Source: a virus
Direction: 5' to 3' (one strand)
Virus genome (UHGV): UHGV-1581437
Length of the DNA: 11,751 nucleotides
Shown here: piece by piece, positions 1 to 11,751 of the stretch
How the letters are laid out: the number at the start of each line of letters is the position of its first letter
Numbering within the stretch: position 1 is the first letter of the stretch
Notes under the pieces: model-generated
Told to the model about the DNA's origin: nothing
What the model saw: the letters and a program-made list of their open reading frames with translations, nothing else
Databases searched by the model: none
Position numbers and translations under genes: made by a program

Positions 1-1773
1 CCCGCCGCAATGCAGCTCAGTGACGCATTGGATACCGTCAGAGATATGTATAGAAAACAACTCCGAAAAGTACCGCCTTCCGCGCCAATCGGGTTCATCC
101 CGGAAAGCTGGAGAAAGGTTGTGATCACCCCCACCGGCATTGACCGAAAATATTACGAATTTTGCGTGCTGAATGAACTGAAGGGAGCCTTACGTTCAGG
201 TGACATCTGGGTAAAGGGGTCACGCCGCTACAGGAATTTCGATGATTATCTGATCCCGTCAGACGATTTTGAAAAATCACTCCGGGATAACCAGTTACCC
301 CTTGCTGTTCCGGCCGATTGCCATGAATACATCAAGAGCCGTTTGACGCTTCTTGCATCGCGTCTGGAAGAAGTTAACGCGATGGCGCTGGCCTGTGATT
401 TACCCGATGTTGATATATCGGATAAAGGCGTGAAAATTACCCCGCTGGATAACAGTGTCCCTTCAGCAGCATCCCCTTTTGGCGATCTGGTTTATGGCAT
501 GCTCCCTCACCCTAAAATTACTGAAATGCTGGATGAAGTGGACGGCTGGACTGGTTTTACCCGCCATTTCACACATCTCAAAAACAATCACGTCAGACCT
601 AAAGACAGAAAGTTGTTACTGACCACCATCCTGGCCGATGGTATCAACCTTGGACTGACAAAAATGGCCGAATCCTGTCCGGGAACGACCAAATCGTCAC
701 TCGAGGGCATTCAGGCCTGGTACATCAGGGATGAAACCTATTCAGCTGCGCTGGCCGAGTTGGTCAATGCCCAGAAAAAAAGCCCTCTGGCGGCATTCTG
801 GGGCGATGGAACAACGTCATCGTCTGATGGACAGAACTTTCGGGTGGGGAGTCACGGGCGTTATGCTGGTCAGGTCAATCTTAAATACGGTCAGGATCCA
901 GGCGTGCAGATTTATACGCATATTTCGGACCAATACAGCCCGTTTTACACCAAAGTTATCAGCCGCGTGCGGGATTCAACACACGTACTTGATGGTCTGC
1001 TGTACCACGAAACTGATCTGGAAATTACAGAGCATTACACCGACACAGCAGGTTTCACTGAGCATGTTTTTGCGCTAATGCATCTGCTCGGATTCGCTTT
1101 TGCGCCAAGGATCCGGGATCTTCATGACAAACGGCTGTTTATTCATGGAAAAGCTGAGTTGTATCAGGGGCTTCAGTCAATCATCTCGACAACCAGCCTG
1201 AATCTAAAGGAAATTGAAACCCACTGGCATGAGGTGCTGCGTCTGGCAAGTTCTATAAAGCAGGGAACGGTAACAGCATCACTGATGATGAAAAAGCTGG
1301 CAAGCTATCCGAAGCAGAATGGTCTGGCAAAGGCGCTGAGAGAGATTGGCCGCATCGAAAGGTCATTGTTTATGCTGGACTGGTTCAGGGATCCTTTACT
1401 GCGTCGACGCGTACAGGCGGGGCTGAATAAAGGTGAGGCTCGCAATGCCCTTGCGCGAGCGGTCTTTATGCATCGGCTGGGTGAAATCAGAGATCGGGGG
1501 CTGGAGAATCAGAGCTATCGAGCCAGCGGTCTGACGTTGCTGACTGCGGCGATCTCACTGCGGAATACGGTATATATAGAAAGAGCGATAGATTCTTTGA
1601 GACGAAAAGGGATCCCGATTAATGAGCAACTGATTACCCATCTGTCACCACTGGGATGGGAACATATCAACCTGAGCGGGGATTACGTCTGGAGAACGAA
1701 CCTCAAACTGGGACAGGGTAAATACCGCGCATTACGCTCAGTGAATAGTAATATGTACAAAAAACAGGCTTAG
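1..1773 (+). CDS. tnpA: Tn3-family DDE transposase TnpA, C-terminal ~590 aa (5' partial; frame is open through bases 1-9)
   Basis: ORF track 10..1773 (587 aa) with no stop in frame back to position 1. Size, composition and a stop codon (TAG 1771-1773) embedded in the terminal IR are typical of Tn3-family TnpA. Not Tn3 itself: the C-terminus differs from the Tn3 TnpA I recall. Confidence 0.88.
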
Positions 1774-1806
1774 CGTAGGATAATTTCCGTTTTCCAAGCG
1801 GACCCC
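1769..1806. repeat. 38-bp Tn3-family terminal inverted repeat (outer end at 1806)
   Basis: Reverse complement of 1769..1806 reads GGGGTCCGCTTGGAAAACGGAAATTATCCTACGCTAAG. It shares the GAAAACGGAAA core and ACGCTAAG inner end with Tn21/Tn501-subgroup IRs as I recall them. The 5 bp immediately outside (1807-1811, ATATA) is the candidate target-site duplication. Confidence 0.8.
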
Positions 1807-2206: not shown

Positions 2207-2223
2207 GCAACCAATTAGAGCAA
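2207..2223 (-). promoter_or_regulatory. C1-operator-like 17-mer upstream of ref (ref operator position)
   Basis: Minus strand reads ATTGCTCTAATTGGTTG; the first 11 positions match the P1 C1 operator consensus ATTGCTCTAATAAATTT. Confidence 0.5.
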
Positions 2224-2355
2224 TTAAAGTTGTTTATTTATCGCGAATCACATTTTTTCACTTCAGTACCTGTGTGCTATACTCCTTTTTGATTAATTGG
2301 ATGCGGAATACAAACCCGCTCTTTTGTGCAGCCTGGCTCCTTGCCAGGCTTTTTT

Positions 2356-2667
2356 TTATTTCATCATGGAAGCTGTTAACGCTTTGGACCTTGCTGAACT
2401 GATTGAGAGGGCTTTGTCAACGTGCCCCAAAAATTCGCCAAACTCAGACATCACTTTAGCAAAACCGCGCCGTGCTTCTTCCTCGGTGGCATTCATCACG
2501 AAATGTTCAGCACCACGCATACTTTTGACAGGGAACGCAACGGATATTGAATCAATATCAGGCATTCTATCGCTCAGCTTTACAGTGACAATGACGGCTG
2601 GCGACTGAATATTAGTGCTTACAGACAGCACTACATATTTTCCGTCGATGTTGAAATCCTTTCTCAC
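2356..2667 (-). CDS. Hypothetical small protein in the cre-ref interval (position of the small P1 gene between cre and ref, possibly c8); GTG start as drawn
   Basis: 103-aa ORF on the same strand as cre and ref, with protein-like composition. The overlapping plus-strand ORF (2297..2608) is Ser/Leu/Cys-rich and less plausible. A C1-operator-like site lies just upstream. Start codon is uncertain. Confidence 0.4.
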   Translation of the reverse strand: MRKDFNIDGKYVVLSVSTNIQSPAVIVTVKLSDRMPDIDSISVAFPVKSMRGAEHFVMNATEEEARRGFAKVMSEFGEFLGHVDKALSISSARSKALTASMMK

Positions 2668-2683
2668 ATGTCACCATAAATAT

Positions 2684-2700
2684 CAAAGAATTAGAGCAAT
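2684..2700 (-). promoter_or_regulatory. C1-operator-like 17-mer between the cre stop and the downstream small gene
   Basis: Minus strand reads ATTGCTCTAATTCTTTG (13/17 to consensus, first 11 positions perfect). Confidence 0.5.
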
Positions 2701-2717
2701 CATTTACGCGTTAATGG

Positions 2718-3749
2718 CTAATCGCCATCTTCCAGCAGGCGCACCATTGCCCCTGTTTCACTATCCAGGTTACGGATATAGTTCATGACAATATTTACGT
2801 TGGTCCAGCCACCAGCTTGCATGATCTCCGGTATTGAAACTCCGGCGCGGGCCATATCTCGTGCGGCTCCGACACGGGCACTGTGTCCAGACCAGGCCAG
2901 GTACCTCTGGCCAGAGTCATCCTTAGCCCCGTAAATCAATCGGTGAGTTGCTTCAAAAATCCCTTCCAGGGCGCGAGTTGATAGCTGGCTGGTGGCAGAT
3001 GGCGCGGCAACACCATTTTTTCTGACACGGCAAAACAAGTAGTTATTCGGATCATCAGCTACACCAGAGACAGAAATCCATCGCTCGACCAGTTTAGTTA
3101 CCCCCAGGCTAAGTGCCTTCTCTACACCTGCGGTGCTAACCAGCGTTTTCGTTCTGCCAATATGGATTAACATTCTCCCACCGCCAGTACGCGAGATATC
3201 TTTAACCCTGATCCTGGCAATTTCGGCTATACGTAACAGGGTGTTATAAGCAATCCCCAGAAATGCTAGATTACGTATATCCTGGCAGCGATCGCTATTT
3301 TCCATGAGCGAACGAACCTGGTCGAAATCAGTGCGTTCGAACGCCAGCGCCTGTTTTGCACGTTCACCGGCATCAACGTTTTCTTTTCGGATCCGCCGCA
3401 TGACCAGTGAAACAGCATTGCTGTCACTTGGTCGTGGCAGCCCGGACCGACGATGAAGCATGTTTAGCTGGCCCAAATGTTGCTGGATAGTTTTCACTGC
3501 CAGACCGCGCGCCTGAAGATATAGAAGATAATCGCGAACATCTTCAGGTTCTGCGGGAAACCACTTCCGGTTATTCAACTTGCACCATGCCGCCCACGAC
3601 CGGCAAACGGACAGAAGCATTTTCCAGGTATGCTCAGAAAACGCCTGGCGATCCCTGAACATGTCCATCAGGTTCTTGCGAACCTCATCACTCGTTGCAT
3701 CGACCGGTAATGCAGGCAAATTTTGGTGTACGGTCAGTAAATTGGACAT
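2718..3749 (-). CDS. cre: Cre tyrosine site-specific recombinase
   Basis: 343-aa ORF starting MSNLLTVHQNLPALPVDATSDEVRKNLMDMFRDRQAFSEHTWKMLLSVCRSWAAWCKLNNRKWFPAEPEDVRDYLLYLQARGLAVKTIQQHLGQLNMLHRRSGLPRPSDSNAVSLVMRRIRKENVDAGERAKQALAFERTDFDQVRSLMENSDRCQDIRNLAFLGIAYNTLLRIAEIARIRVKDISRTGGGRMLIHIGRTKTLVSTAGVEKALSLGVTKLVERWISVSGVADDPNNYLFCRVRKNGVAAPSATSQLSTRALEGIFEATHRLIYGAKDDSGQRYLAWSGHSARVGAARDMARAGVSIPEIMQAGGWTNVNIVMNYIRNLDSETGAMVRLLEDGD, which I recognise as Cre; one position reads G where I recall D (RTGGGRM versus RTDGGRM). A loxP site lies ~410 bp upstream. Confidence 0.97.
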   Translation of the reverse strand: MSNLLTVHQNLPALPVDATSDEVRKNLMDMFRDRQAFSEHTWKMLLSVCRSWAAWCKLNNRKWFPAEPEDVRDYLLYLQARGLAVKTIQQHLGQLNMLHRRSGLPRPSDSNAVSLVMRRIRKENVDAGERAKQALAFERTDFDQVRSLMENSDRCQDIRNLAFLGIAYNTLLRIAEIARIRVKDISRTGGGRMLIHIGRTKTLVSTAGVEKALSLGVTKLVERWISVSGVADDPNNYLFCRVRKNGVAAPSATSQLSTRALEGIFEATHRLIYGAKDDSGQRYLAWSGHSARVGAARDMARAGVSIPEIMQAGGWTNVNIVMNYIRNLDSETGAMVRLLEDGD

Positions 3750-3756
3750 TTAACAC

Positions 3757-3978
3757 TCAGATGATGGTTTTAAGTAAAGTGTACAGGATCGGCTCTGCCT
3801 TTACCTGTTTATGGTTCTCGTCATAGAAACGCCAGCGACCGCGCGTGCGTTCTATTTTCTCTTCACCGCGCGATAATGACAGTTGGCAACTATCACGATC
3901 AAACCCTTTTGCCCGCCAGTAACCACGGTTTTTCTCAAGCTCAAGATGAGTGGACACTTTAGCAGTTGAATATCCCAT
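3757..3978 (-). CDS. Small basic protein (73 aa) immediately upstream of cre; likely the cre-associated small gene (cra)
   Basis: ATG preceded by a strong Shine-Dalgarno (minus strand AGAGGTGAAAA-ATG). The stop lies 8 nt before the cre ATG, suggesting co-transcription or coupling with cre. Confidence 0.45.
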   Translation of the reverse strand: MGYSTAKVSTHLELEKNRGYWRAKGFDRDSCQLSLSRGEEKIERTRGRWRFYDENHKQVKAEPILYTLLKTII

Positions 3979-4010
3979 TTTTCACCTCTGATTGATTGGT
4001 GGTGCTAAGT

Positions 4011-4069
4011 GCGCTACGCGAAATCTGTAGGACTAACACCGCCAACTTTTCACAGATTTTACGTAGCGC
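4011..4069. repeat. Long imperfect inverted repeat (~18 of 20 bp arms, ~20-bp spacer) in the loxP-cre regulatory region
   Basis: GCGCTACGCGAAATCTGTAG (4011-4030) pairs with CACAGATTTTACGTAGCGC (4051-4069). Adjacent GATC (Dam) sites at TTGATCAAATGATCA (4075-4089) and TTGATCAT (4135-4142). Confidence 0.5.
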
Positions 4070-4159
4070 AACCTTGATCAAATGATCACTATTTGACCTG
4101 CTAAGGTATTGAACTGTATGGATTTACAGGTAAATTGATCATATTCAATAACCCTTAAG

Positions 4160-4193
4160 ATAACTTCGTATAATGTATGCTATACGAAGTTAT
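4160..4193. other. loxP site-specific recombination site (Cre target)
   Basis: Exact 34-bp match ATAACTTCGTATA-ATGTATGC-TATACGAAGTTAT: two 13-bp inverted arms around the 8-bp asymmetric spacer. Confidence 0.97.
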
Positions 4194-4236
4194 CAGGTCC
4201 GAAGAGGAGTTTACGTCCAGCCGCGCACAAAAATCA

Positions 4237-4253
4237 AGAATTATTAGAGCAAT
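4237..4253 (-). promoter_or_regulatory. C1 operator (Op99-type), minus orientation
   Basis: Minus strand reads ATTGCTCTAATAATTCT (15/17 to consensus ATTGCTCTAATAAATTT). Confidence 0.6.
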
Positions 4254-4313
4254 AAATTTTGAGAGAAAAATCCCACTCCACCAGCTAAAAACTGGATTGT
4301 TTTTCATAGTTGT

Positions 4314-4340
4314 TTGACAATTGCTCTAATAAATTATAGT
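4314..4340 (+). promoter_or_regulatory. C1 operator (Op99-type) overlapping a sigma70-like promoter facing coi-c1
   Basis: TTGACA (4314-4319) followed directly by ATTGCTCTAATAAATTA (4320-4336, 16/17 to consensus) and TATAGT (4335-4340): a -35 and -10 with a 15-bp spacer fully occupied by the operator. Confidence 0.6.
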
Positions 4341-4574
4341 TTTGCCGCCGTTACGTAATACGACTTTGGATTCACTATTTAATGTGTCTTCAGCGTTGTA
4401 GAGCGGCTCAGAAGGAAATGAGCAAACAGGGAAACCTTATACAACGGCATTACAGCTATGCATTGCTCATCTTACACACAGCGCAATGTTGTTAGATTAC
4501 CCCAGCATGGATCATGGGTGAAACAGTAGGTCAGAGCTTCAGGCTCTGTGTTGTCAATACAGTGAGGCATAATT

Positions 4575-4784
4575 ATGGCTTTCATTCAACCAACCATCGA
4601 CGACGTTAGACATTGCTCTAACGCTTTATCTGTAGACCCTGCCGAAACCGACGCTGCCCGCGCCATTGCTGAACACTACTCAAAGATATCCAATCAGGAG
4701 TACCGCATCACCCAAGACGACCTGGATGACCTCACTGACACAATCGAATATCTCATGGCAACTAACCAGTTAGACTCACAATAA
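4575..4784 (+). CDS. coi: Coi (C1 inactivator), 69 aa
   Basis: 69-aa acidic ORF directly upstream of c1 and downstream of the operator cluster; GAGG lies 7 nt before the ATG. Size and position match P1 coi. Confidence 0.85.
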   Translation: MAFIQPTIDDVRHCSNALSVDPAETDAARAIAEHYSKISNQEYRITQDDLDDLTDTIEYLMATNQLDSQ

Positions 4785-4800
4785 ATGCACTAATAAATCT
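4784..4800 (+). promoter_or_regulatory. Weaker C1-operator-like 17-mer between coi and c1
   Basis: AATGCACTAATAAATCT (14/17 to consensus), followed by a TATAAT hexamer at 4820-4825. Confidence 0.35.
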
Positions 4801-4894
4801 ATTATTTTTGTTTGATCCCTCTATAATATAGGTCAGTAATGACCGGTTTTCTCAGCCGGGCGTTATTGACCATGTCAATTCTGGAGGAGGATCA

Positions 4895-5746
4895 ATGATA
4901 AATTATGTCTACGGCGAACAACTGTACCAGGAGTTCGTCAGCTTCAGGGATCTCTTTCTAAAAAAAGCTGTTGCACGCGCCCAACACGTTGATACAGCCA
5001 GCGACGGTCGTCCTGTACGCCCGGTTGTCGTTCTACCGTTCAAAGAAACTCACAGCATTCAGGCTGAAATTGATAAATGGACTTTAATGGCGCGGGAACT
5101 GGAACAGTACCCAGACCTCAATATCCCAAAGACTATTTTATATCCAGTGCCTAACATCCTTCGCGGTGTGCGCAAGGTTACAACTTATCAGACAGAAGCT
5201 GTGAACAGCGTCAACATGACCGCTGGCCGCATTATTCATCTGATTGATAAGGACATTCGCATCCAGAAAAGCGCAGGGATCAATGAGCACAGTGCGAAAT
5301 ACATAGAGAACCTGGAAGCAACAAAAGAGCTAATGAAGCAGTACCCGGAGGATGAAAAATTCCGTATGCGCGTACACGGCTTTAGCGAAACAATGCTGCG
5401 CGTCCATTACATTTCCAGTAGCCCTAACTACAATGATGGTAAATCAGTTAGTTACCATGTGCCGCTGTGTGGTGTGTTTATCTGCGATGAAACTCTCCGT
5501 GATGGAATCATCATCAACGGTGAATTCGAGAAAGCAAAATTTAGCCTTTATGACTCTATAGAACCGATCATCTGCGACCGCTGGCCGCAGGCAAAAATAT
5601 ATCGCCTGGCAGATATTGAAAATGTAAAAAAACAAATTGCCATCACTCGCGAAGAGAAAAAGGTCAAATCAGCCGCATCAGTTACGCGCAGCCGTAAAAC
5701 CAAGAAGGGGCAGCCAGTAAACGACAACCCCGAAAGCGCGCAATAA
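4895..5746 (+). CDS. c1: C1 repressor of lysis (primary immunity repressor), 283 aa
   Basis: 283-aa ORF with strong RBS (GGAGGAGG, 4883-4890). Length, position after coi and the surrounding operator array match P1 c1. Confidence 0.92.
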   Translation: MINYVYGEQLYQEFVSFRDLFLKKAVARAQHVDTASDGRPVRPVVVLPFKETHSIQAEIDKWTLMARELEQYPDLNIPKTILYPVPNILRGVRKVTTYQTEAVNSVNMTAGRIIHLIDKDIRIQKSAGINEHSAKYIENLEATKELMKQYPEDEKFRMRVHGFSETMLRVHYISSSPNYNDGKSVSYHVPLCGVFICDETLRDGIIINGEFEKAKFSLYDSIEPIICDRWPQAKIYRLADIENVKKQIAITREEKKVKSAASVTRSRKTKKGQPVNDNPESAQ

Positions 5747-5749
5747 ATT

Positions 5750-5771
5750 ATGCCCGGCATCAACCGGGCAT
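5750..5771. terminator. Bidirectional intrinsic-terminator-like hairpin between convergent c1 and the Ant-like gene
   Basis: ATGCCCGG-CATCAA-CCGGGCAT perfect 8-bp stem with T-rich flanks on both strands, sitting in the 32-bp gap between two convergent stop codons. Confidence 0.6.
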
Positions 5772-5778
5772 TCTTCCA

Positions 5779-6891
5779 TTATTCAGCCGCCACCGGTTTT
5801 AACAAGCCAGCATCGAGCAGTTTACGCGTCAACCACTGCTGGCCTTTACCCGTTAATTGAGGCGTCAACCGTATCTGGTAGCCATCTTCATCATCCAGCA
5901 CCACTTCTTTCACCGTGAAATACCCCGCGTTGATGTACTGCTGGAACGGCACATTTTTACGTCCACCGGACGCTATCAGGATGCCGTTCTCCCGTAACCA
6001 GACAAACAGCGCGTTTTGCTTAAGTCCAACAACCTTTGCAAAATTCCCAATCAGGATCCCTTTAGCTACTGATACCCGGTCGGCAAAATCGACTTTAGGA
6101 GCGGCGGCCACCAGCTGCTGATTTAGCTGGTGGGCTTTCTGTTCCAAAAGCTGCTTTTGTTCAGCCAGTTCGGCAGCCAGGCGCAGAGCTTCTGGAAGCG
6201 TCTGGGGGATTGCAACCGGTTGCTGTTCTTTTTGCCGGAAGTAGCTGTCTTCCAGTTTTTCAAAGAATGCCCATGCTTCATTTGTGTCCACGATCTTAGA
6301 CATGCGTGCAGCGCCGCGCTCTGTCCAGAGTGTAAGGCTTCTGGCGTTCTTACCAACAGAGTAACTTCCGGTTACTCTGTTCTTAAATTCTCTTAATTTT
6401 AAACCAGTTAGAAGAAAGTAATGCTTACCTTCTTCAAAGCGGTCAAGGTTGCGAGACAAATTGTTGCGAATATTGGCTTCATCGACCCCATACCCTCTAG
6501 CAAGAGTTTCGGTTGTCACGACACGTACTCCCTGCCATTCCAGAACGGGAATTTCATCCGGCTGATTCTGAACAACCACCAGTTCCGATTCCTGAACTGA
6601 AGGTGCATAAATTTTTTCTGATTTAACGTTAGTTGCTTTCATTCTGTGTGCCTCCTTGCGTGCTTCGGCTGCGACGGTTGCGTAATTCAGATGACCCTGT
6701 TCGAGCAGGTATTCACGGATATCGGTTAGCAGAATGCGGTGAACCGCGTGTTTGTCCTTTCTCCGGTAAAGTTGTTTGGTGATCATGAAGTAGTTGGCAA
6801 TAACGCCCGGTATATCCCTGGTACTGATACAGGCAGTGTGCTGTTCAATTGCCTCGATCATCTCTTCACGGGTGACTAATGACGTTCTCAT
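5779..6891 (-). CDS. Ant-like antirepressor (370 aa) with an ORF6N/Bro-N-like central domain and a KilAC-type C-terminal domain; in-frame internal start at 6642 would give a 287-aa isoform
   Basis: Strong RBS (minus AGGAGGG 4 nt before ATG). Central segment LEWQGVRVVTTETLARGYGVDEANIRNNLSRNLDRFEEGKHYFLLTG...LWTERGA...FFEKLEDSYF has the ORF6N pattern; the C-terminus (VDFADRVSVAKGILIGNFAKVVGLKQNALFVWLRENGIL...) is KilAC-like. Domain calls are from motif memory, not a search. Confidence 0.85.
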   Translation of the reverse strand: MRTSLVTREEMIEAIEQHTACISTRDIPGVIANYFMITKQLYRRKDKHAVHRILLTDIREYLLEQGHLNYATVAAEARKEAHRMKATNVKSEKIYAPSVQESELVVVQNQPDEIPVLEWQGVRVVTTETLARGYGVDEANIRNNLSRNLDRFEEGKHYFLLTGLKLREFKNRVTGSYSVGKNARSLTLWTERGAARMSKIVDTNEAWAFFEKLEDSYFRQKEQQPVAIPQTLPEALRLAAELAEQKQLLEQKAHQLNQQLVAAAPKVDFADRVSVAKGILIGNFAKVVGLKQNALFVWLRENGILIASGGRKNVPFQQYINAGYFTVKEVVLDDEDGYQIRLTPQLTGKGQQWLTRKLLDAGLLKPVAAE

Positions 6892-7109
6892 AGTCCCTCC
6901 TGAGCAGAAGCGTTAACAGGGAGGCACCAGTAACTGAGAGAATTGCGCGAATCGGTAGAAAAGCGGGCAGAGAAAATACAGGGAGCATCCGGAAGCTGAG
7001 AACGTGCCTCATCTTCTGTCGGTGCAATAACGAAGTGATAGTGACGTTTTTGGCAGGAGTAAAAGCGCCAGATAAATTCAGGATGAGCAGGGGTAGGGAT
7101 AGTAGCCAC
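6888..7109 (-). CDS. Icd-like small protein (73 aa) translationally coupled to the Ant-like gene
   Basis: GTG start 8 nt downstream of a consensus SD (minus AAGGAGG, plus 7118-7124). Its stop overlaps the ant ATG as ATGA (6888-6891). Size and overlap mirror P1 icd-ant1 (73-codon icd, as I recall). Confidence 0.55.
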   Translation of the reverse strand: MATIPTPAHPEFIWRFYSCQKRHYHFVIAPTEDEARSQLPDAPCIFSARFSTDSRNSLSYWCLPVNASAQEGL

Positions 7110-7117
7110 AATGGCAG

Positions 7118-7141
7118 CCTCCTTTTGCTAATTTAAGGAGC
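7118..7141 (-). promoter_or_regulatory. RBS-sequestering hairpin for the Icd-like ORF
   Basis: Minus strand GCTCCTT-AAATTAGCAA-AAGGAGGC: an upstream anti-SD (CTCCTT) can pair with the SD (AAGGAG) of the small ORF. Confidence 0.4.
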
Positions 7142-7293
7142 TACCGCGTGAGGTCTCAATCTCAATGGCGGTAGCACTGACTGGGTTGAGACTACCGGCG
7201 CAAAAGGGAACCGGCCTGCCTTTCGGCAGCCCAGCCAGCACTACCATTGATCTCTGAGCTAAACGCTACGTATGGCTGTGCGATGGCATGACA

Positions 7294-7322
7294 CAAAAAA
7301 AGACGCTTTTGGCGTCTGTGTC
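7294..7322 (-). terminator. Strong rho-independent terminator on the minus strand inside the module leader
   Basis: Minus strand GACAC-AGACGC-CAAAA-GCGTCT-TTTTTTT-GTGTC: GC-rich stem followed by seven T, with an outer GACAC/GTGTC clamp. Confidence 0.6.
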
Positions 7323-7430
7323 GCCTTTTGCATTATCCGGGGTCTCAATCCCGGCACCCGTTTTACTGAGGTGCCTGATAAGCATAAACCGAAAATGCCT
7401 CAAGGCGCAAGAGGTCAGGTTCAATGTAAC
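7294..7430 (-). ncRNA. Candidate C4-like antisense regulatory RNA (about 120-135 nt) running from the operator-overlapped promoter to the terminator
   Basis: Promoter-like elements on the minus strand (TTGTGT, 17-bp spacer, TACATT) next to a C1-operator-like site. Hairpin CCGGG-AUUGAGAC-CCCGG (plus 7337-7354). Terminator at 7294-7322. The loop is complementary to a downstream leader site. No protein-coding potential. Confidence 0.35.
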
Positions 7431-7448
7431 ATCGGTAGTTAAAAAACA

Positions 7449-7465
7449 CAATTTATTAGAGCAAA
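7449..7465 (-). promoter_or_regulatory. C1-operator-like 17-mer at the head of the sRNA/icd-like/ant-like module
   Basis: Minus strand TTTGCTCTAATAAATTG (15/17 to consensus), starting 4 nt after the pacB stop and overlapping the candidate promoter. Confidence 0.55.
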
Positions 7466-7468
7466 TAT

Positions 7469-8953
7469 TCATTCATTAAGCCATGCCAGAGCTTCATCAA
7501 CCTGCGCTTCGTCTTCGACGCTAAGCACTTCGTCCTGGGGAACATAATCCGCCAGCATAGCGAAACAATATGTATCCCAATGGTCTGGTGAGTGCAGGTT
7601 GAGTTTTTTCTTCATATCCTCCTTACTCATCACCTTCCATTGACCTGCGGAGTTAATCCCTACAGGGATTTTCGACGCTTCCTCAATAGTTTCATTACCC
7701 TTATCCAGTCTCATACGACCAGATTTTACGGCCTCTGCGGCTTGAACGTTGGCATAAGCACGTTTATCAAAGTACAGGCTCTTATCTTCACGGCTATGCA
7801 TCTTTTTACCCCAGCGTATACGCTGTACGGTAATACCATAATACTCGTACATCAGATCCGCCGTTGCTTTACCCAGGCCATCGCCGTCTATCGCTATGGT
7901 GATATTTGGGAATCGCTCAGGATTACATTCTGCGAAAATTTTGGCGGCAAGCTGCGTTTCTGTAACGTCTGTGTATTCCAGCATTCGATAGTTGATTACA
8001 CGGCGTTTATTTCGCTGGCCGGACACCATCATGATATTGATAACGGACTTATCCCGTCCCGTACCACCAGCAACGTCCACACATGCAAGCCAGCCCCATC
8101 CTTTTGCAATCTTGACTTTCCGCCGCGTTGCACGTTCAACCTCATCACGTCCAAGAAGGAAGCCATCCTGTGATTTAGGGAATAGGCCGCGTACCTTAAT
8201 CATGTACATAGGGTTATCACGCCCGCCGTACTCCGCCAGCTTCATTTTGATAAATGCTGGCGTTACCAACGGTGATTCCTCACTGTTAAGCGTGATCGCC
8301 GTATAAACGCCATCAGGGTTACCAGGACGCTTGGCCAGTTTATGGTGTGTATCGTAGAAATAGCCGCTTGGGCGTGTAGGCTGTGACAGCAATAAGATGC
8401 GGTTATCCTGTCCGGTAAGAGCACCGGTGATGATACCGAAAGCTCTATCACTGACACCGGAGGCTTCATCGATAATATACAGAAGATGATCTGCGTGTTC
8501 ACCGGCGAGAGCTTCTTCACTTCCCAGACGAAAGCCCTTCGGTACTACAGTCCATACACCTTTACCAGTAATCTCATAGAAAGCGGTTTCTGTCAGAACA
8601 AAATAATCAGCAAGCCATGGGAAACGGCTGGTGGCAGTAGCCCAGTTTATCTTGATGTACTTGAATATACCGGTCATTACCTGCTGAATTTTGTTCGCAA
8701 CGATAATGGCACGGGCACCTGGATACATGATTATGAACAACATGATCATGATAGAAGTCATGTCTGATTTCCCGGTACCGTGACCAGACGAAACAGATGT
8801 CTTGCTACCCTGTTCCTGCACAGACTCAATAATCAGATCCTGCTGCCAGGTAGGTGTTTTGCCGAACAAAACATCAGCGGCCGCAATCCAGTCATAACGA
8901 TATAGCGCCACCAGCTCGCGCCAACGTGGATCCGTTACGCAACTTCTGGCCAT
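7469..8953 (-). CDS. pacB: Terminase large subunit PacB (494 aa)
   Basis: 494-aa ORF with a Walker A-like motif (SSGHGTGKS) and acidic nuclease-type motifs. Its ATG overlaps the pacA stop (TAATG). Size and order match P1 pacB. Confidence 0.92.
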
Positions 8954-10146
8954 TAATCATCATCCCCGTATAGCTTGCGGGTAACTTCTTCGTCTTCCTC
9001 CTCGTCTTCGTCCAGGTCTTGTTCCAGCCATGGGTCGTTTGATACACCTTCAGTATCAACATCTCCATAACCGCCTGTATCAACGATATCGGCGATTTCT
9101 TCCCTACGCTGCTCAATCCACAATGCGGCATCGGCGCGGCGGTTGGCGGCCCGTTCTCGCGCAACTTTGTCCAGATCTTCAAGAGAAGGGCCACCGACGG
9201 CTGTTTGCCTTTCCTCATCATCGGTATTGGTCTTAGGAGCACGCAGATCGGCTTTGATTTGCTCCAGCATCAGGGGCGGCACTTTCCCGCCATGCGCCTC
9301 GATGAATTCAGCTGCTTCCAGCACTGACCAGTTATTTTCACGCTTTCGTTCGTATGCCAGCTTAACAATGCCAGCTTGCCCCATAGACAAAGCGTGCTTT
9401 TCCGCCTCCCGGCTTTCTTTTCGATAGTTATTCCGGATGCTGTAAATGGTGTTGATCAGGCTGCTTATCTGCGCGGAACAGCTGTTTAGCATGCTCGCGA
9501 TACGGTATTCAGGCGGAGTACCTTCATCATCGTCTTTTTGCTGATCGCGCATTTCCTGCACCAGGCGAATACACGTATCCCTGGCGTTCTCCAGCATAAG
9601 GAGATGAGAAAGAGACTTTTCCAGAAGAGTGGTTTCCAGAACATCGGCCCCGGACCGACGCAACATAGCGCGCGCGGCCTTCCGCGCTTCAACGTTATCT
9701 ATCAGGTAATCGCCAGCTTCGAATTCAAAGCGTTCACCATCATCATCCAGGGTGTCGCGTTCCAGGCGATCACGTAAGGTCCGGTGGGCGCGGGTGATCA
9801 CGTCATGATCATCAGAACGATCATTTATGCGCTTATTCTGGCGCTTCGCGTTCTCGACTGCGGCACTGACAACAGCATTAACTCTTTGTTTTTCAGCCAT
9901 TTCAGCCACAATGTGATCACCTGCACGTTGATCATTAGCGTGATCAATGATCATGCTTTTTAGTGGTTTTCTGACAGGCTTATTTGGCTTACGGCTGTCC
10001 GCTGTTCCGGTGTCTTCTTTGAATGCACGGAGATAACGACGTGCGGTGTTTGGGTTGAGATTAAACTCGGCGGCATATTGTGCGATGGTGTAACCACCAT
10101 CTCGCGCCAGGCGAGCAAAATTCTTCTTGTGATCGTCCCAGGTCAC
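8953..10146 (-). CDS. pacA: Terminase small subunit / pac-recognition protein PacA (397 aa); the pac site is embedded in the coding sequence
   Basis: 397-aa ORF with an N-terminal HTH-like region and a highly acidic C-terminus (DEDEEEDEE). GTG start with AAGGAAG RBS. Contains the clustered TGATCA hexamers characteristic of P1 pac. Confidence 0.92.
9794..9953. other. pac packaging-initiation site: 3 + 4 GATC-containing hexamers flanking a ~100-bp core
   Basis: Left cluster TGATCA 9794-9799, TGATCA 9806-9811, GATCA 9819-9823. Right cluster TGATCA at 9913-9918, 9929-9934, 9941-9946, 9948-9953. Seven Dam-methylatable hexamers in a 4/3 split is the described architecture of P1 pac. Confidence 0.85.
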
Positions 10147-10232
10147 TTATGCTTCCTTTCGTATAAAACTCTTTTTGACGCGAGGGTAACGAAAGTCACA
10201 TGTCAAAAGGCCCGGAACGGGCAAGCAATCAA

Positions 10233-10685
10233 TCAGATACGTGCGGATGTGGCATTACCGTAATGACGGTGCTGACGGACCACCTTATTGAAAAGTTGAC
10301 GCGCCATCACCCAAGGCTGGTGCTCCCGGCGTTCCTTTTCGTCCTGCGTCATATAGAGTTCGTTCTGGAGTTTTTCATCAAACCGGCGCGGAGCGCGGCT
10401 GCGGCGAAAGAATTCAGGATTCAGAGAGTGGATCTGAAATCTACGTGGGCGTGTACTGTCATCAATCAAAACAGACGAATACTTAGACACAGCGATAGCC
10501 TTTAAGCGCAGATAAACATCGCGCTTATCGACATCCAGATGCGGGTATTCCTTTTCAAGAATTGCTGCGAGATCTTTCGCTGATAGAAGAGATTTAGTGC
10601 GGATCATGTAATCCGCAATCTCGTACGATGTTATTCGTGAGTGATTTATTTCCATGAAGTGGCGTCCCTGCCAGTTAAGTAACAT
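10233..10685 (-). CDS. lpa: Lpa-like late promoter activator (150 aa as drawn; alternative ATG at 10655 gives 140 aa)
   Basis: Small basic ORF directly upstream of pacA and preceded by a C1-operator-overlapped promoter, as for P1 gene 10 / lpa. Identity is by synteny and size, not sequence recall. Confidence 0.7.
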   Translation of the reverse strand: MLLNWQGRHFMEINHSRITSYEIADYMIRTKSLLSAKDLAAILEKEYPHLDVDKRDVYLRLKAIAVSKYSSVLIDDSTRPRRFQIHSLNPEFFRRSRAPRRFDEKLQNELYMTQDEKERREHQPWVMARQLFNKVVRQHRHYGNATSARI

Positions 10686-10755
10686 CCTGTCACCTACTGA
10701 TTAGCCCATGTCAACTAATCAACGTCGAATATAATACCCTCGATTAAAGAAATAG

Positions 10756-10772
10756 CAATACATTAGAGCAAT
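10756..10772 (-). promoter_or_regulatory. C1-operator-like 17-mer overlapping the lpa promoter
   Basis: Minus strand ATTGCTCTAATGTATTG (13/17 to consensus). TTGCTC inside the operator serves as -35, then a 17-bp spacer, then TTTAAT as -10, all upstream of lpa. Confidence 0.6.
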
Positions 10773-10773
10773 T

Positions 10774-11751
10774 TTATCTAACGCTCGACGAATGACTTGT
10801 GATAGCGCCGACTCCAAGCGCGTAATCAAAGAACAATCGTTGATGCATCGCCAGCCTACCGTGCGTCTTCTCCCAATTATCGCGGTCACGCTCAATATCA
10901 CGCTGGCATGACTGGCACAGAGGAACAGCATAAATGTCATGCGCGCATAATCGACTATGACGAACGATATAAGGCGTAATGTGAGCGCCAGCTCCCGCAG
11001 CTCCACAGCCACAGCATGGACGGGAAGCCACAAAATCCATGTACTCGGGCAATTTTAGCGATTGGAGTTTTGGTATTTTGAAATGCGCCATGCCAGGGTC
11101 GGCGTCAACATCCACAGGGCATACTTTTGCACGCATCGGCGCGGCGCGTTCTTCCATCATCTGAACATATGCTGTAGCGCGATCGTCATACGGGCGAATA
11201 TCCGCCTCTTTCAGAGGTCCGCTATCCTGCGGAGTAGCCTTCATCTTATTTATTGATATGCGGCAGACTTCTTCCGGCATCAGGTGCATCATGTTGCGCA
11301 TGAAAGCCCACCAGCACAGCTCCTGAATACTTAAATCATGGCTATTTGAAAGGCCCATTTCCTGACGGGCGACATCCAGTATCCAGTTAACGCGATTATT
11401 GTGCAGCGTTTCTTTCAGCTCATTAAAACCACGCATCCGGTAATGGTTATCGTGATGCCAGCACAACAACACCGCGCTATTGTCTCGTTCAGCGTGGACA
11501 ATATGGTTGTCACACCAACTACGATCTGCGGCCTGGCATTGACCCTCTTTCCTACGCAACCACGCCACCAGCGCGTCAATTCCACCAATACGGCGAAACA
11601 GTTCATCGCTGTTAAAAAACGGCTGCAACGCCTCATTTGTTGCCATGGTTTGCTCGGTAACAACGAGGCCGTCTTCCATGTGCTCGATTAACTCACGCGG
11701 CACCGGCTCCATAATAAATTTACGGCCAGCCTCCACCAGCTTTCTGACTTC
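10774..11751 (-). CDS. Cys/His-rich protein with a Ref-like (DUF968/HNH-type) C-terminal motif; possibly the P1 pdcB-position gene; 5' end may lie beyond the window
   Basis: ORF of at least 320 aa, open to the window edge on the minus strand. C-terminus has [38 protein letters not shown] and an earlier [25 protein letters not shown] motif. Position upstream of lpa matches pdcB in the P1 gene order I recall. Confidence 0.65.

Follow-up and report, generated by a model that had tools for sequence, protein, structure and literature searches.

The 11,751-nucleotide (nt) stretch of UHGV virus genome UHGV-1581437 analysed here (the window) is, judged by its sequence, a segment of a P1-like (Punavirus) phage-plasmid that spans loxP and runs in the reverse orientation relative to the P1 map. 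The whole window matches P1, P7, SJ46, RCS47, JL22 and other Punavirus genomes at 93–99% identity (megablast against phage records). It contains a set of 17-mers which are very probably operators of the P1-type repressor C1, the 17-mer at 7449–7465 being the equivalent of the P1 operator Oc4 (Op51) and belonging to a second complete immI cassette inserted between pacB and c1. By alignment this operator is conserved and homologous to Oc4, and its cognate repressor is present: the C1 protein encoded on the same element is identical to P1 C1.100 at 281 of 283 positions and scores 609.7 bits against the NCBIfam equivalog phage_rep_C1 (cutoff 500).

Probable C1 operators in the window

C1 binds 22 dispersed operators of one consensus, and its activity is modulated by Coi, Lxc, Ant1/Ant2 and c4 RNA (PMC8546580). 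The first-pass annotation had listed seven C1-operator-like 17-mers and placed ref, the cre region, coi/c1, an immI-like module and lpa under this single repressor. A search with the consensus ATTGCTCTAATAAATTT, an asymmetric 17-bp motif, allowing up to three mismatches, recovered five of the seven (Oc1e, Oc1d, Oc1a, the operator at the head of the insert and Olpa) at unchanged coordinates, where 0.05 sites were expected by chance and none of 200 shuffles gave five or more. The remaining two, in the cre/c8 spacer and ahead of ref, each have four mismatches to the consensus.

We also scanned the window with a log-odds matrix made from the P1 annotation (AF234172), which lists 20 monovalent C1 operators, one of them (Omat) on the wrong strand. 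All seven sites scored 16.2–26.1 bits, clear of background and within the range of the validated operators, whose leave-one-out scores are mostly 15.7–27.7 bits with only Oc1c (10.3 bits) and Oc1b (−1.0 bits) falling below. All seven 17-mers thus exist by consensus and matrix, with the correction that the site ahead of ref had been placed one base off (at 2207–2223 rather than 2208–2224). Absent from the list were Oc1c and Oc1b, the latter being the weak half of the bivalent c1 operator.

Eight sites in the window reach at least 14 bits, compared with 0.18 expected per window from first-order Markov randomizations and 0.07 per 1.4 kb at the window's own intergenic composition. The sites are therefore commoner than chance in AT-rich intergenic DNA would produce. 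The next-best match (12.1 bits, at 1069–1085 inside tnpA) was rejected as chance, random windows having an average best score of 11.7 bits. A further operator-like sequence, TTTGCTCGTATAAATTT (13.8 bits), lies inside pacB at P1 positions 92418–92434, near window position 8240; it is present in P1 and in 17 IMG/VR relatives and is not kept in the window itself.

Could the 17-mers, or at least those at 7449–7465 and 2684–2700, nevertheless be functionless chance matches? Both of these sites lie in AT-rich spacers, and the mismatched site at 2684–2700 occupies a place where P1 and P7 have TATAAT, possibly a mere −10-like box. However, the number of sites far exceeds the chance levels given above, the 7449–7465 site reaches 22 bits, is homologous to Oc4 and is present in every cassette examined, and the 2684–2700 site is retained in all the relatives that cover it, where free drift was not seen. 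We consider an origin by chance extremely improbable.

For five of the seven sites an annotated operator stands at the orthologous position in P1: Oref, Oc1e (cra/cre), Oc1d and Oc1a (coi/c1) and Olpa. Pairwise alignments that included the flanks showed identity or near-identity to P1 for Oc1e, Oc1d, Oc1c, Oc1a/b and Olpa and for the −35 and −10 hexamers annotated with them, and the canonical sites are therefore those of the known P1 regulon. At Oref one operator position differs from P1 and the −10 just downstream reads CATAAT rather than TATAAT. The P1 record assigns Oref to ref, Olpa to lpa, and Oc1d, Oc1c and Oc1a/b to imcA/B, coi and c1 (the genes of the P1coi transcript), and states that Oc1e 'may control expression of cra and cre'. 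With the near-identity of C1 itself, these orthologies support, at the sequence level, the proposal of a regulon under one repressor.

Conservation was assessed in 80 IMG/VR loci encoding a C1 at least 99% identical to that of the window, 73 of which span the c1–pacB junction. Oc1c was found in 80 of 80 loci and Olpa in 73 of 73; at the Oref position there were about 60 matrix matches among the 80.

The first-pass annotation had also noted that several sites overlap promoter hexamers, which holds by way of the P1 annotation and the near-identity of the window to P1. An operator lies on or beside a sigma-70 promoter at Oref, Oc1e, Oc1d, Oc1a and Olpa on that basis, and at 7449–7465 by alignment to the P1 promoter P2c4. 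A simple promoter scanner recovered none of the annotated P1-type promoters around lox and coi, and it also missed the pair of promoters, similar to P51a and P51b, downstream of 7449–7465. We therefore assigned promoters by homology to the P1 annotation instead.

The insert between pacB and c1 is a second immI-type cassette

The 1.7 kb at 5779–7468 that P1 lacks is, from the arrangement of its recognizable parts, a complete immI-type cassette comprising an operator, two promoters, an isrK-like leader, a C4 antisense RNA, icd and ant (Table 1). The operator at its head can be aligned to P1 Oc4 and also to the one found where this cassette type occupies the canonical immI site. The −35 of the first putative promoter overlaps the last three operator bases, a geometry that is the same as in P1 P2c4 (P51a). 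The second aligns to P1 P1c4 (P51b; TTGACC/TATAGT), column conservation over 7422–7375 being 0.994, and its predicted start at ∼7374 coincides with the base at which the Rfam isrK match begins. The alignment with Oc4/Op51 and the P51a and P51b promoters bears out the suggestion that 7449–7465 would join the inserted module to the C1 regulon. The site had been described as the one not expected from the canonical map, which is correct for its position; but every examined immI cassette in C1-encoding elements has such an operator, so the site is unexpected only in where it lies and arrived with the module.

The isrK-like leader contains the C4 target sites a1 (7348–7342) and b1 (7331–7324) and ends in an intrinsic terminator (7317–7301) followed by a T-run. 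The isrK model also matches the P1 immI leader in the a1/b1 region (35 bits); because one model matches both, the window and P1 immI leaders are homologous, which points to homology between the P1 leader and IsrK of Gifsy-1 as well. Further downstream, the second target site b2 overlaps the icd Shine–Dalgarno sequence GGAGG, and the a2/b2 layout is the same as in P1.

The predicted Icd is identical to P1 Icd at 52 of 64 residues (81%) over the aligned stretch and matches NCBIfam phage_ICD_like with 49.8 bits. The predicted Ant is 57% identical overall to P1 Ant1, its C-terminal ∼140 residues being near-identical, and a conserved internal methionine with GGAGG upstream can be read from the sequence. 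The convergent ant and c1 genes are separated by 32 nt; a hairpin there, with a 9-bp GC-rich stem and a T-rich tail on the minus strand, is likely to be the terminator of the cassette.

Two open reading frames (ORFs) were rejected as genes for want of Pfam or NCBIfam support: a 68-residue ORF at 7266–7472 and a 39-residue 'ash family protein' ORF on the C4 gene (7134–7253(−)). RefSeq/PGAP places an 'ash family protein' exactly on the C4 gene, and does so also in loci L009 (2712–2831) and L011 (6254–6373); this coding sequence is probably spurious.

The C4 specificity has changed and covaries with its targets

The loops of the window C4 RNA are b′ CCTTTTGC (7207–7200) and a′ GTCTCAA (7192–7186). 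The b′ loop is complementary over exactly 8 nt to GCAAAAGG, which is present at both b1 and b2 (7128–7121), and the a′ loop over exactly 7 nt to TTGAGAC, present at both a1 and a2 (7159–7153). In P1 the corresponding loops, TCACTAAC and CTGTCAA, pair with b2 (GTTAGTGA) and with a1/a2 (TTGACAG), respectively. Since the window loops match their own targets and differ from those of P1, the C4 mechanism has been kept and its specificity changed.

Across 39 distinct cassette sequences the C4 region is the most variable part. Three a-site types (TTGAGAC, TTGGAAC and TTGGCCT) and three b-site types (GCAAAAGG, GTCAAAGG and GTCTAAGG) occur among the distinct cassettes (IMG/VR loci L012–L091), in five combinations, and the a and b sites covary with a′ and b′ through Watson–Crick or G–U pairs. 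The operator is meanwhile near-constant, varying at two of its 17 positions. Phage JL22 has, besides its second cassette, a canonical immI of the P7-like type, with a TTGACAG, b GATTGTGA and an operator of its own (TCTGCTCTAATAAATTT, 21.1 bits); in C4 specificity this immI is orthogonal to the second cassette of the same phage. As read from these pairings, the antisense lock is intact and is evolving under selection for pairing.

Distribution of the cassette

Among the 73 IMG/VR loci that span the c1–pacB junction, 36 have a P1-like spacer of ∼28 nt and the remaining 37 contain the 1.7 kb cassette; all 37 cassettes have an operator of the 7449–7465 type. Four phage records carry the cassette between pacB and c1: JL22 (99.1% identical), two record copies of RCS47 (91%) and vB_EcoM-673R5 (87%). 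Because each of these phages also carries a canonical immI beside kilA, the cassette at pacB–c1 is an extra copy and not a relocation. A total of 309 plasmids in PLSDB hold at least 80% of it. An 'ant' insertion between pacB and c1 has been described in RCS47, pTZ20_1P and other P1-like plasmids (PMC6906374). We found no description of the operator, promoters, isrK-like leader, C4 RNA or target sites of the insert in the searchable literature, that report included.

Phage D6 carries a related cassette, with 95% identity over 7375–7048 and 87% from 7418 onward, isrK and C4 included; no P1-type C1 operator was found anywhere in the 5.4 kb stretch of D6 that was examined. Taken with the operator in 37 of 37 cassettes, this indicates that the operator accompanies the cassette when the host element uses C1. 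D6 has two icd-containing cassettes (locus L007, 2544–2754; D6 20806–21177), one resembling P1 immI and the other resembling the window cassette.

The same cassette type also occupies the canonical immI site, ahead of kilA-repL, in CP058684 and CP024832. Homology to these begins exactly at the operator, which there reads ATTGCTCTAATTATTTT (24.8 bits). Such boundaries bring up the possibility that 7449–7465 is mainly a recombination joint for the exchange or duplication of immI cassettes, carried along without regulating: the homology to the canonical-site allele starts at operator base 2 (query position 37) and stops at the ant stop codon, and the few bases between the pacB stop codon and the operator vary among relatives as junctions do. 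However, the promoter hexamers are almost invariant and the spacing of the operator to them is constant in the 39 distinct variants, as expected of a working operator–promoter unit, and the two roles are not mutually exclusive. A joint as the main role is, in our view, decidedly unlikely.

Proposed regulation of the second cassette

In a lysogen, C1 with its corepressor Lxc (encoded outside the window) would occupy nine sites: Oref, possibly the cre/c8 site, Oc1e, Oc1d, Oc1c, Oc1a/b, Olpa and 7449–7465. At 7449–7465 it would cover the −35 of the upstream, P51a-like promoter and leave the P51b-like promoter, 40 nt downstream, uncovered, so that the latter would keep making the isrK-like leader. 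Read-through of the leader terminator would yield C4 RNA, which would pair with a2/b2 over the icd ribosome-binding site and leave icd and the ant antirepressor untranslated. Loss or inactivation of C1 would allow transcription from both promoters. By analogy with Gifsy-1, the antirepressor gene may be reached by read-through transcripts only, which the short RNA might act upon. The C1 occupancy, the activity of the two promoters and their separate roles are all projected from P1 biology, and a GenBank note in the P1 record reads 'controls expression of c4'.

A different use of C1 at 7449–7465 would be as a roadblock against pacA–pacB transcripts entering the antirepressor cassette, with promoter repression secondary. 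Only 3 nt separate the pacB stop codon from the operator and there is no terminator between them; in the P1 annotation pacA contains a sigma-70 promoter and is preceded by a late promoter; and Oc1c, inside coi, is another operator that lies away from any promoter. Against this, the canonical immI site has the same operator–promoter unit with other upstream genes, which lie on the opposite strand, and the unit is therefore independent of pacB read-through. We judge a chiefly roadblocking role to be very unlikely.

Several points count against an Oc4-like control of the cassette by C1. The case for C1 acting at 7449–7465 is drawn from homology, and this operator deviates from the consensus at positions 1 and 17. 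That P51a is controlled by C1 and P51b is constitutive is an assumption taken from the P1 immunity literature (Heinrich, Velleman, Schuster). The hexamers of the P51a-like and P51b-like promoters agree with the consensus at only 8 of 12 positions, below the threshold of the scanner, although the promoters of P1 itself are equally weak. Finally, the leader terminator, which transcripts would have to read through to reach C4, icd and ant, is without a clear P1 equivalent. Set against these points, neither chance, nor a recombination joint, nor a roadblock fits as well as a C1 operator of the Oc4/Op51 class serving a second immI cassette.

A candidate operator between cre and c8

The site at 2684–2700 lies 17 nt past the cre stop codon and 17 nt ahead of the c8 start codon (GTG in the window, ATG in P1). 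In P1 and P7 the region reads ATTGCTATAATTATTTG, containing TATAAT. The window has the operator core ATTGCTCTAAT at this site, and 57 of the 62 IMG/VR loci that cover the cre/c8 junction have a CTCTAAT core; in all 62 the site scores at least 13 bits. A search for a promoter that the site could control gave nothing convincing. We regard 2684–2700 as a candidate C1 operator, whose target, if any, would be c8 rather than cre. The conserved site may be a C1 operator that has gone unrecognized and was lost from the laboratory phages P1 and P7.

Organization of the window

The layout in Table 1 was derived from the P1 annotation and the list of ORFs. The terminal repeat of the transposon ends ...GGACCCC at 1806, the position at which homology to P1-like elements begins. 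The ref ORF follows P1 Ref for ∼101 of its 186 residues and then enters the Tn3-family inverted repeat; because ref is truncated by the transposon end, Oref here precedes a dead gene. The Tn3–ref junction is also found at 99.9% identity in several Escherichia coli plasmids, including the IncF hybrid CP057248, which is without the second immI cassette, and P7 has a Tn3 insertion in ref as well. The loxP sequence matches at 34 of 34 positions within a 'portal protein' gene of Lactococcus phage Q33 (JX564242), which looks like an engineered or contaminated record, not biology.

Table 1. Positions of putative operators, cassette parts and genes in the window (scores of operators are matrix scores; those of RNAs are Rfam scores)
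Feature	Position	Strand	Score (bits)	Remarks
Oref orthologue, ref promoter	2208–2224	−	16.2	ATTGCTCTAATTGGTTG; aligns to P1 Oref 1962–1978
Candidate C1 operator, cre/c8 spacer	2684–2700	−	18.9	ATTGCTCTAATTCTTTG; unannotated in P1 and P7
Oc1e (Op99e) orthologue	4237–4253	−	25.1	At −35 of P4cre (cra/cre); context identical to P1
Oc1d (Op99d) orthologue	4320–4336	+	26.1	Between −35 TTGACA and −10 of P1coi; context identical to P1
Oc1c (Op99c) orthologue	4612–4628	+	14.9	Inside coi; ATTGCTCTAACGCTTTA, identical to P1 Oc1c
Bivalent Oc1ab orthologue	4784–4811			Over −35 of Pc1
Oc1a half	4784–4800	+	23.6	
Oc1b half	4795–4811	−	5.2	Weak
Oc4/Op51-type C1 operator, head of insert	7449–7465	−	22.0	TTTGCTCTAATAAATTG; starts 3 nt past pacB stop codon
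Olpa (Op94) orthologue	10756–10772	−	19.6	At −35 of Plpa; identical to P1 Olpa
Insert absent from P1	5779–7468			1.7 kb, between pacB and c1
P51a-like (P2c4-like) promoter	7423–7451	−		−35 TTGTGT, 17-nt spacer, −10 TACATT; read from sequence
P51b-like/PisrK promoter	7381–7410	−		−35 TTGCGC, 18 nt, −10 TATGCT; downstream of operator
isrK-like leader RNA	7296–7374	−	58.2	RF01394; gathering score 50
C4 antisense RNA	7164–7251	−	75	RF01695; gathering score 45
C4 target sites a2 and b2	7121–7159	−		TTGAGAC (a2); GCAAAAGG (b2)
icd-like gene	6888–7109	−		73 residues, GTG start; stop overlaps ant start by 4 nt (6888–6891)
ant-like antirepressor gene	5779–6891	−		370 residues; Pfam ANT and ORF6N; internal Ant2-like start near 6642
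Terminator-like hairpin	5750–5771	−		Between ant and c1
Tn3-family transposon end	10–1806	+		C-terminal part of tnpA and terminal inverted repeat; Pfam DDE_Tnp_Tn3, E = 4e-147
Truncated ref	1770–2108	−		First ∼101 residues as P1 Ref, the rest transposon sequence
c8	2356–2667	−		
cre	2718–3749	−		
cra	3757–3978	−		
loxP	4160–4193			34 bp
coi (C1 inactivator)	4575–4784	+		68/70 translated positions (69 residues and stop) identical to P1 Coi; P1 annotation
c1 repressor gene	4895–5746	+		
pacB	7469–8953	−		
pacA	8953–10146	−		
lpa	10233–10685	−		
pdcB	10774–11736	−		

Significance for P1-like phage-plasmids

The operators are a rediscovery of the P1 C1 regulon with one further operator, of a known class, on a second immI cassette. 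They are mainly confirmatory, the P1 regulon map carrying over unchanged to wild relatives, and would not surprise a P1 specialist; of more interest are the orthogonal, reassorting C4 specificities found in about half of the wild relatives. P1-like phage-plasmids spread resistance genes in Enterobacteriaceae, and their choice between lysogeny and induction is set by the C1/Coi/Ant circuit. We see an even chance that such elements, under a single repressor, keep each of two antirepressors behind its own, orthogonal antisense lock, a combinatorial heteroimmunity in which there are at least five second-cassette specificities, all unlike the canonical immI of the same genome. If this is true, it would mean both a wider prophage immunity and a wider ability to break the immunity of rivals. 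The common 'ant insertion' proves to be a full second immI cassette equipped with a separate C1 operator and a C4 RNA of orthogonal specificity, offering a concrete and testable explanation for heteroimmunity groups among P1-like plasmids. Annotations that call the C4 gene a protein are corrected as well.

Comparison with known systems

The operators of the window resemble those annotated in P1 (Op2a/Oref, Op99a–e/Oc1a–e, Op94/Olpa and Op51/Oc4) in having the same asymmetric 17-bp motif and the same repressor, with five sites at the same positions relative to promoters, and the sequence context of 7449–7465 is the same as that of Oc4. The differences are an extra operator where P1 has a 24-nt c1–pacB spacer, a site with the consensus core ahead of c8 (P1 and P7 have ATTGCTATAAT there), and an Oref that precedes a truncated ref.

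P1 immI consists of Oc4 (Op51), P2c4 (P51a), P1c4 (P51b), a1/b1, c4, a2/b2, icd and ant1/ant2, and the order, spacing and overlap of the parts in P1/P7 immI (Op51-P51a-P51b-c4-icd-ant1/ant2) are the same in the window cassette. The operator and both promoters align among the window, P1 immI and a third allele located at the canonical site before kilA-repL. From the operator start to the C4 match there are 214 nt in the window and 197 nt in P1, and in both a 73-residue icd overlaps the ant start by 4 nt. As in P1/P7 immI, two C4 loops pair to a1/b1 and a2/b2, with b2 over the icd ribosome-binding site. The cassettes differ in their location, that of P1 immI being between sim and kilA(-repL) whereas the window cassette lies between pacB and c1, and in C4 specificity (a TTGAGAC and b GCAAAAGG in the window, TTGACAG and GTTAGTGA in P1). 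They differ also in Ant, which is homologous to that of P1 in its N-terminal part and its C-terminal ∼140 residues but has an ORF6N domain in place of the middle, and in the leader, which in the window is of the isrK type with an intrinsic terminator, unlike that of P1/P7 immI. The 'ant' insertion reported in PMC6906374 is the same insertion as the window cassette.

In the isrK-orf45-anrP unit of the Salmonella prophage Gifsy-1, read-through of a terminator yields the antirepressor mRNA; the binding of Hfq and the trans-activation of the read-through mRNA by IsrK are known only for Gifsy-1 (PMC4825925). The window cassette resembles this unit in having an Rfam isrK leader with a terminator followed by an antirepressor gene, and differs from it in having a P1-type C1 operator upstream and an Icd gene.

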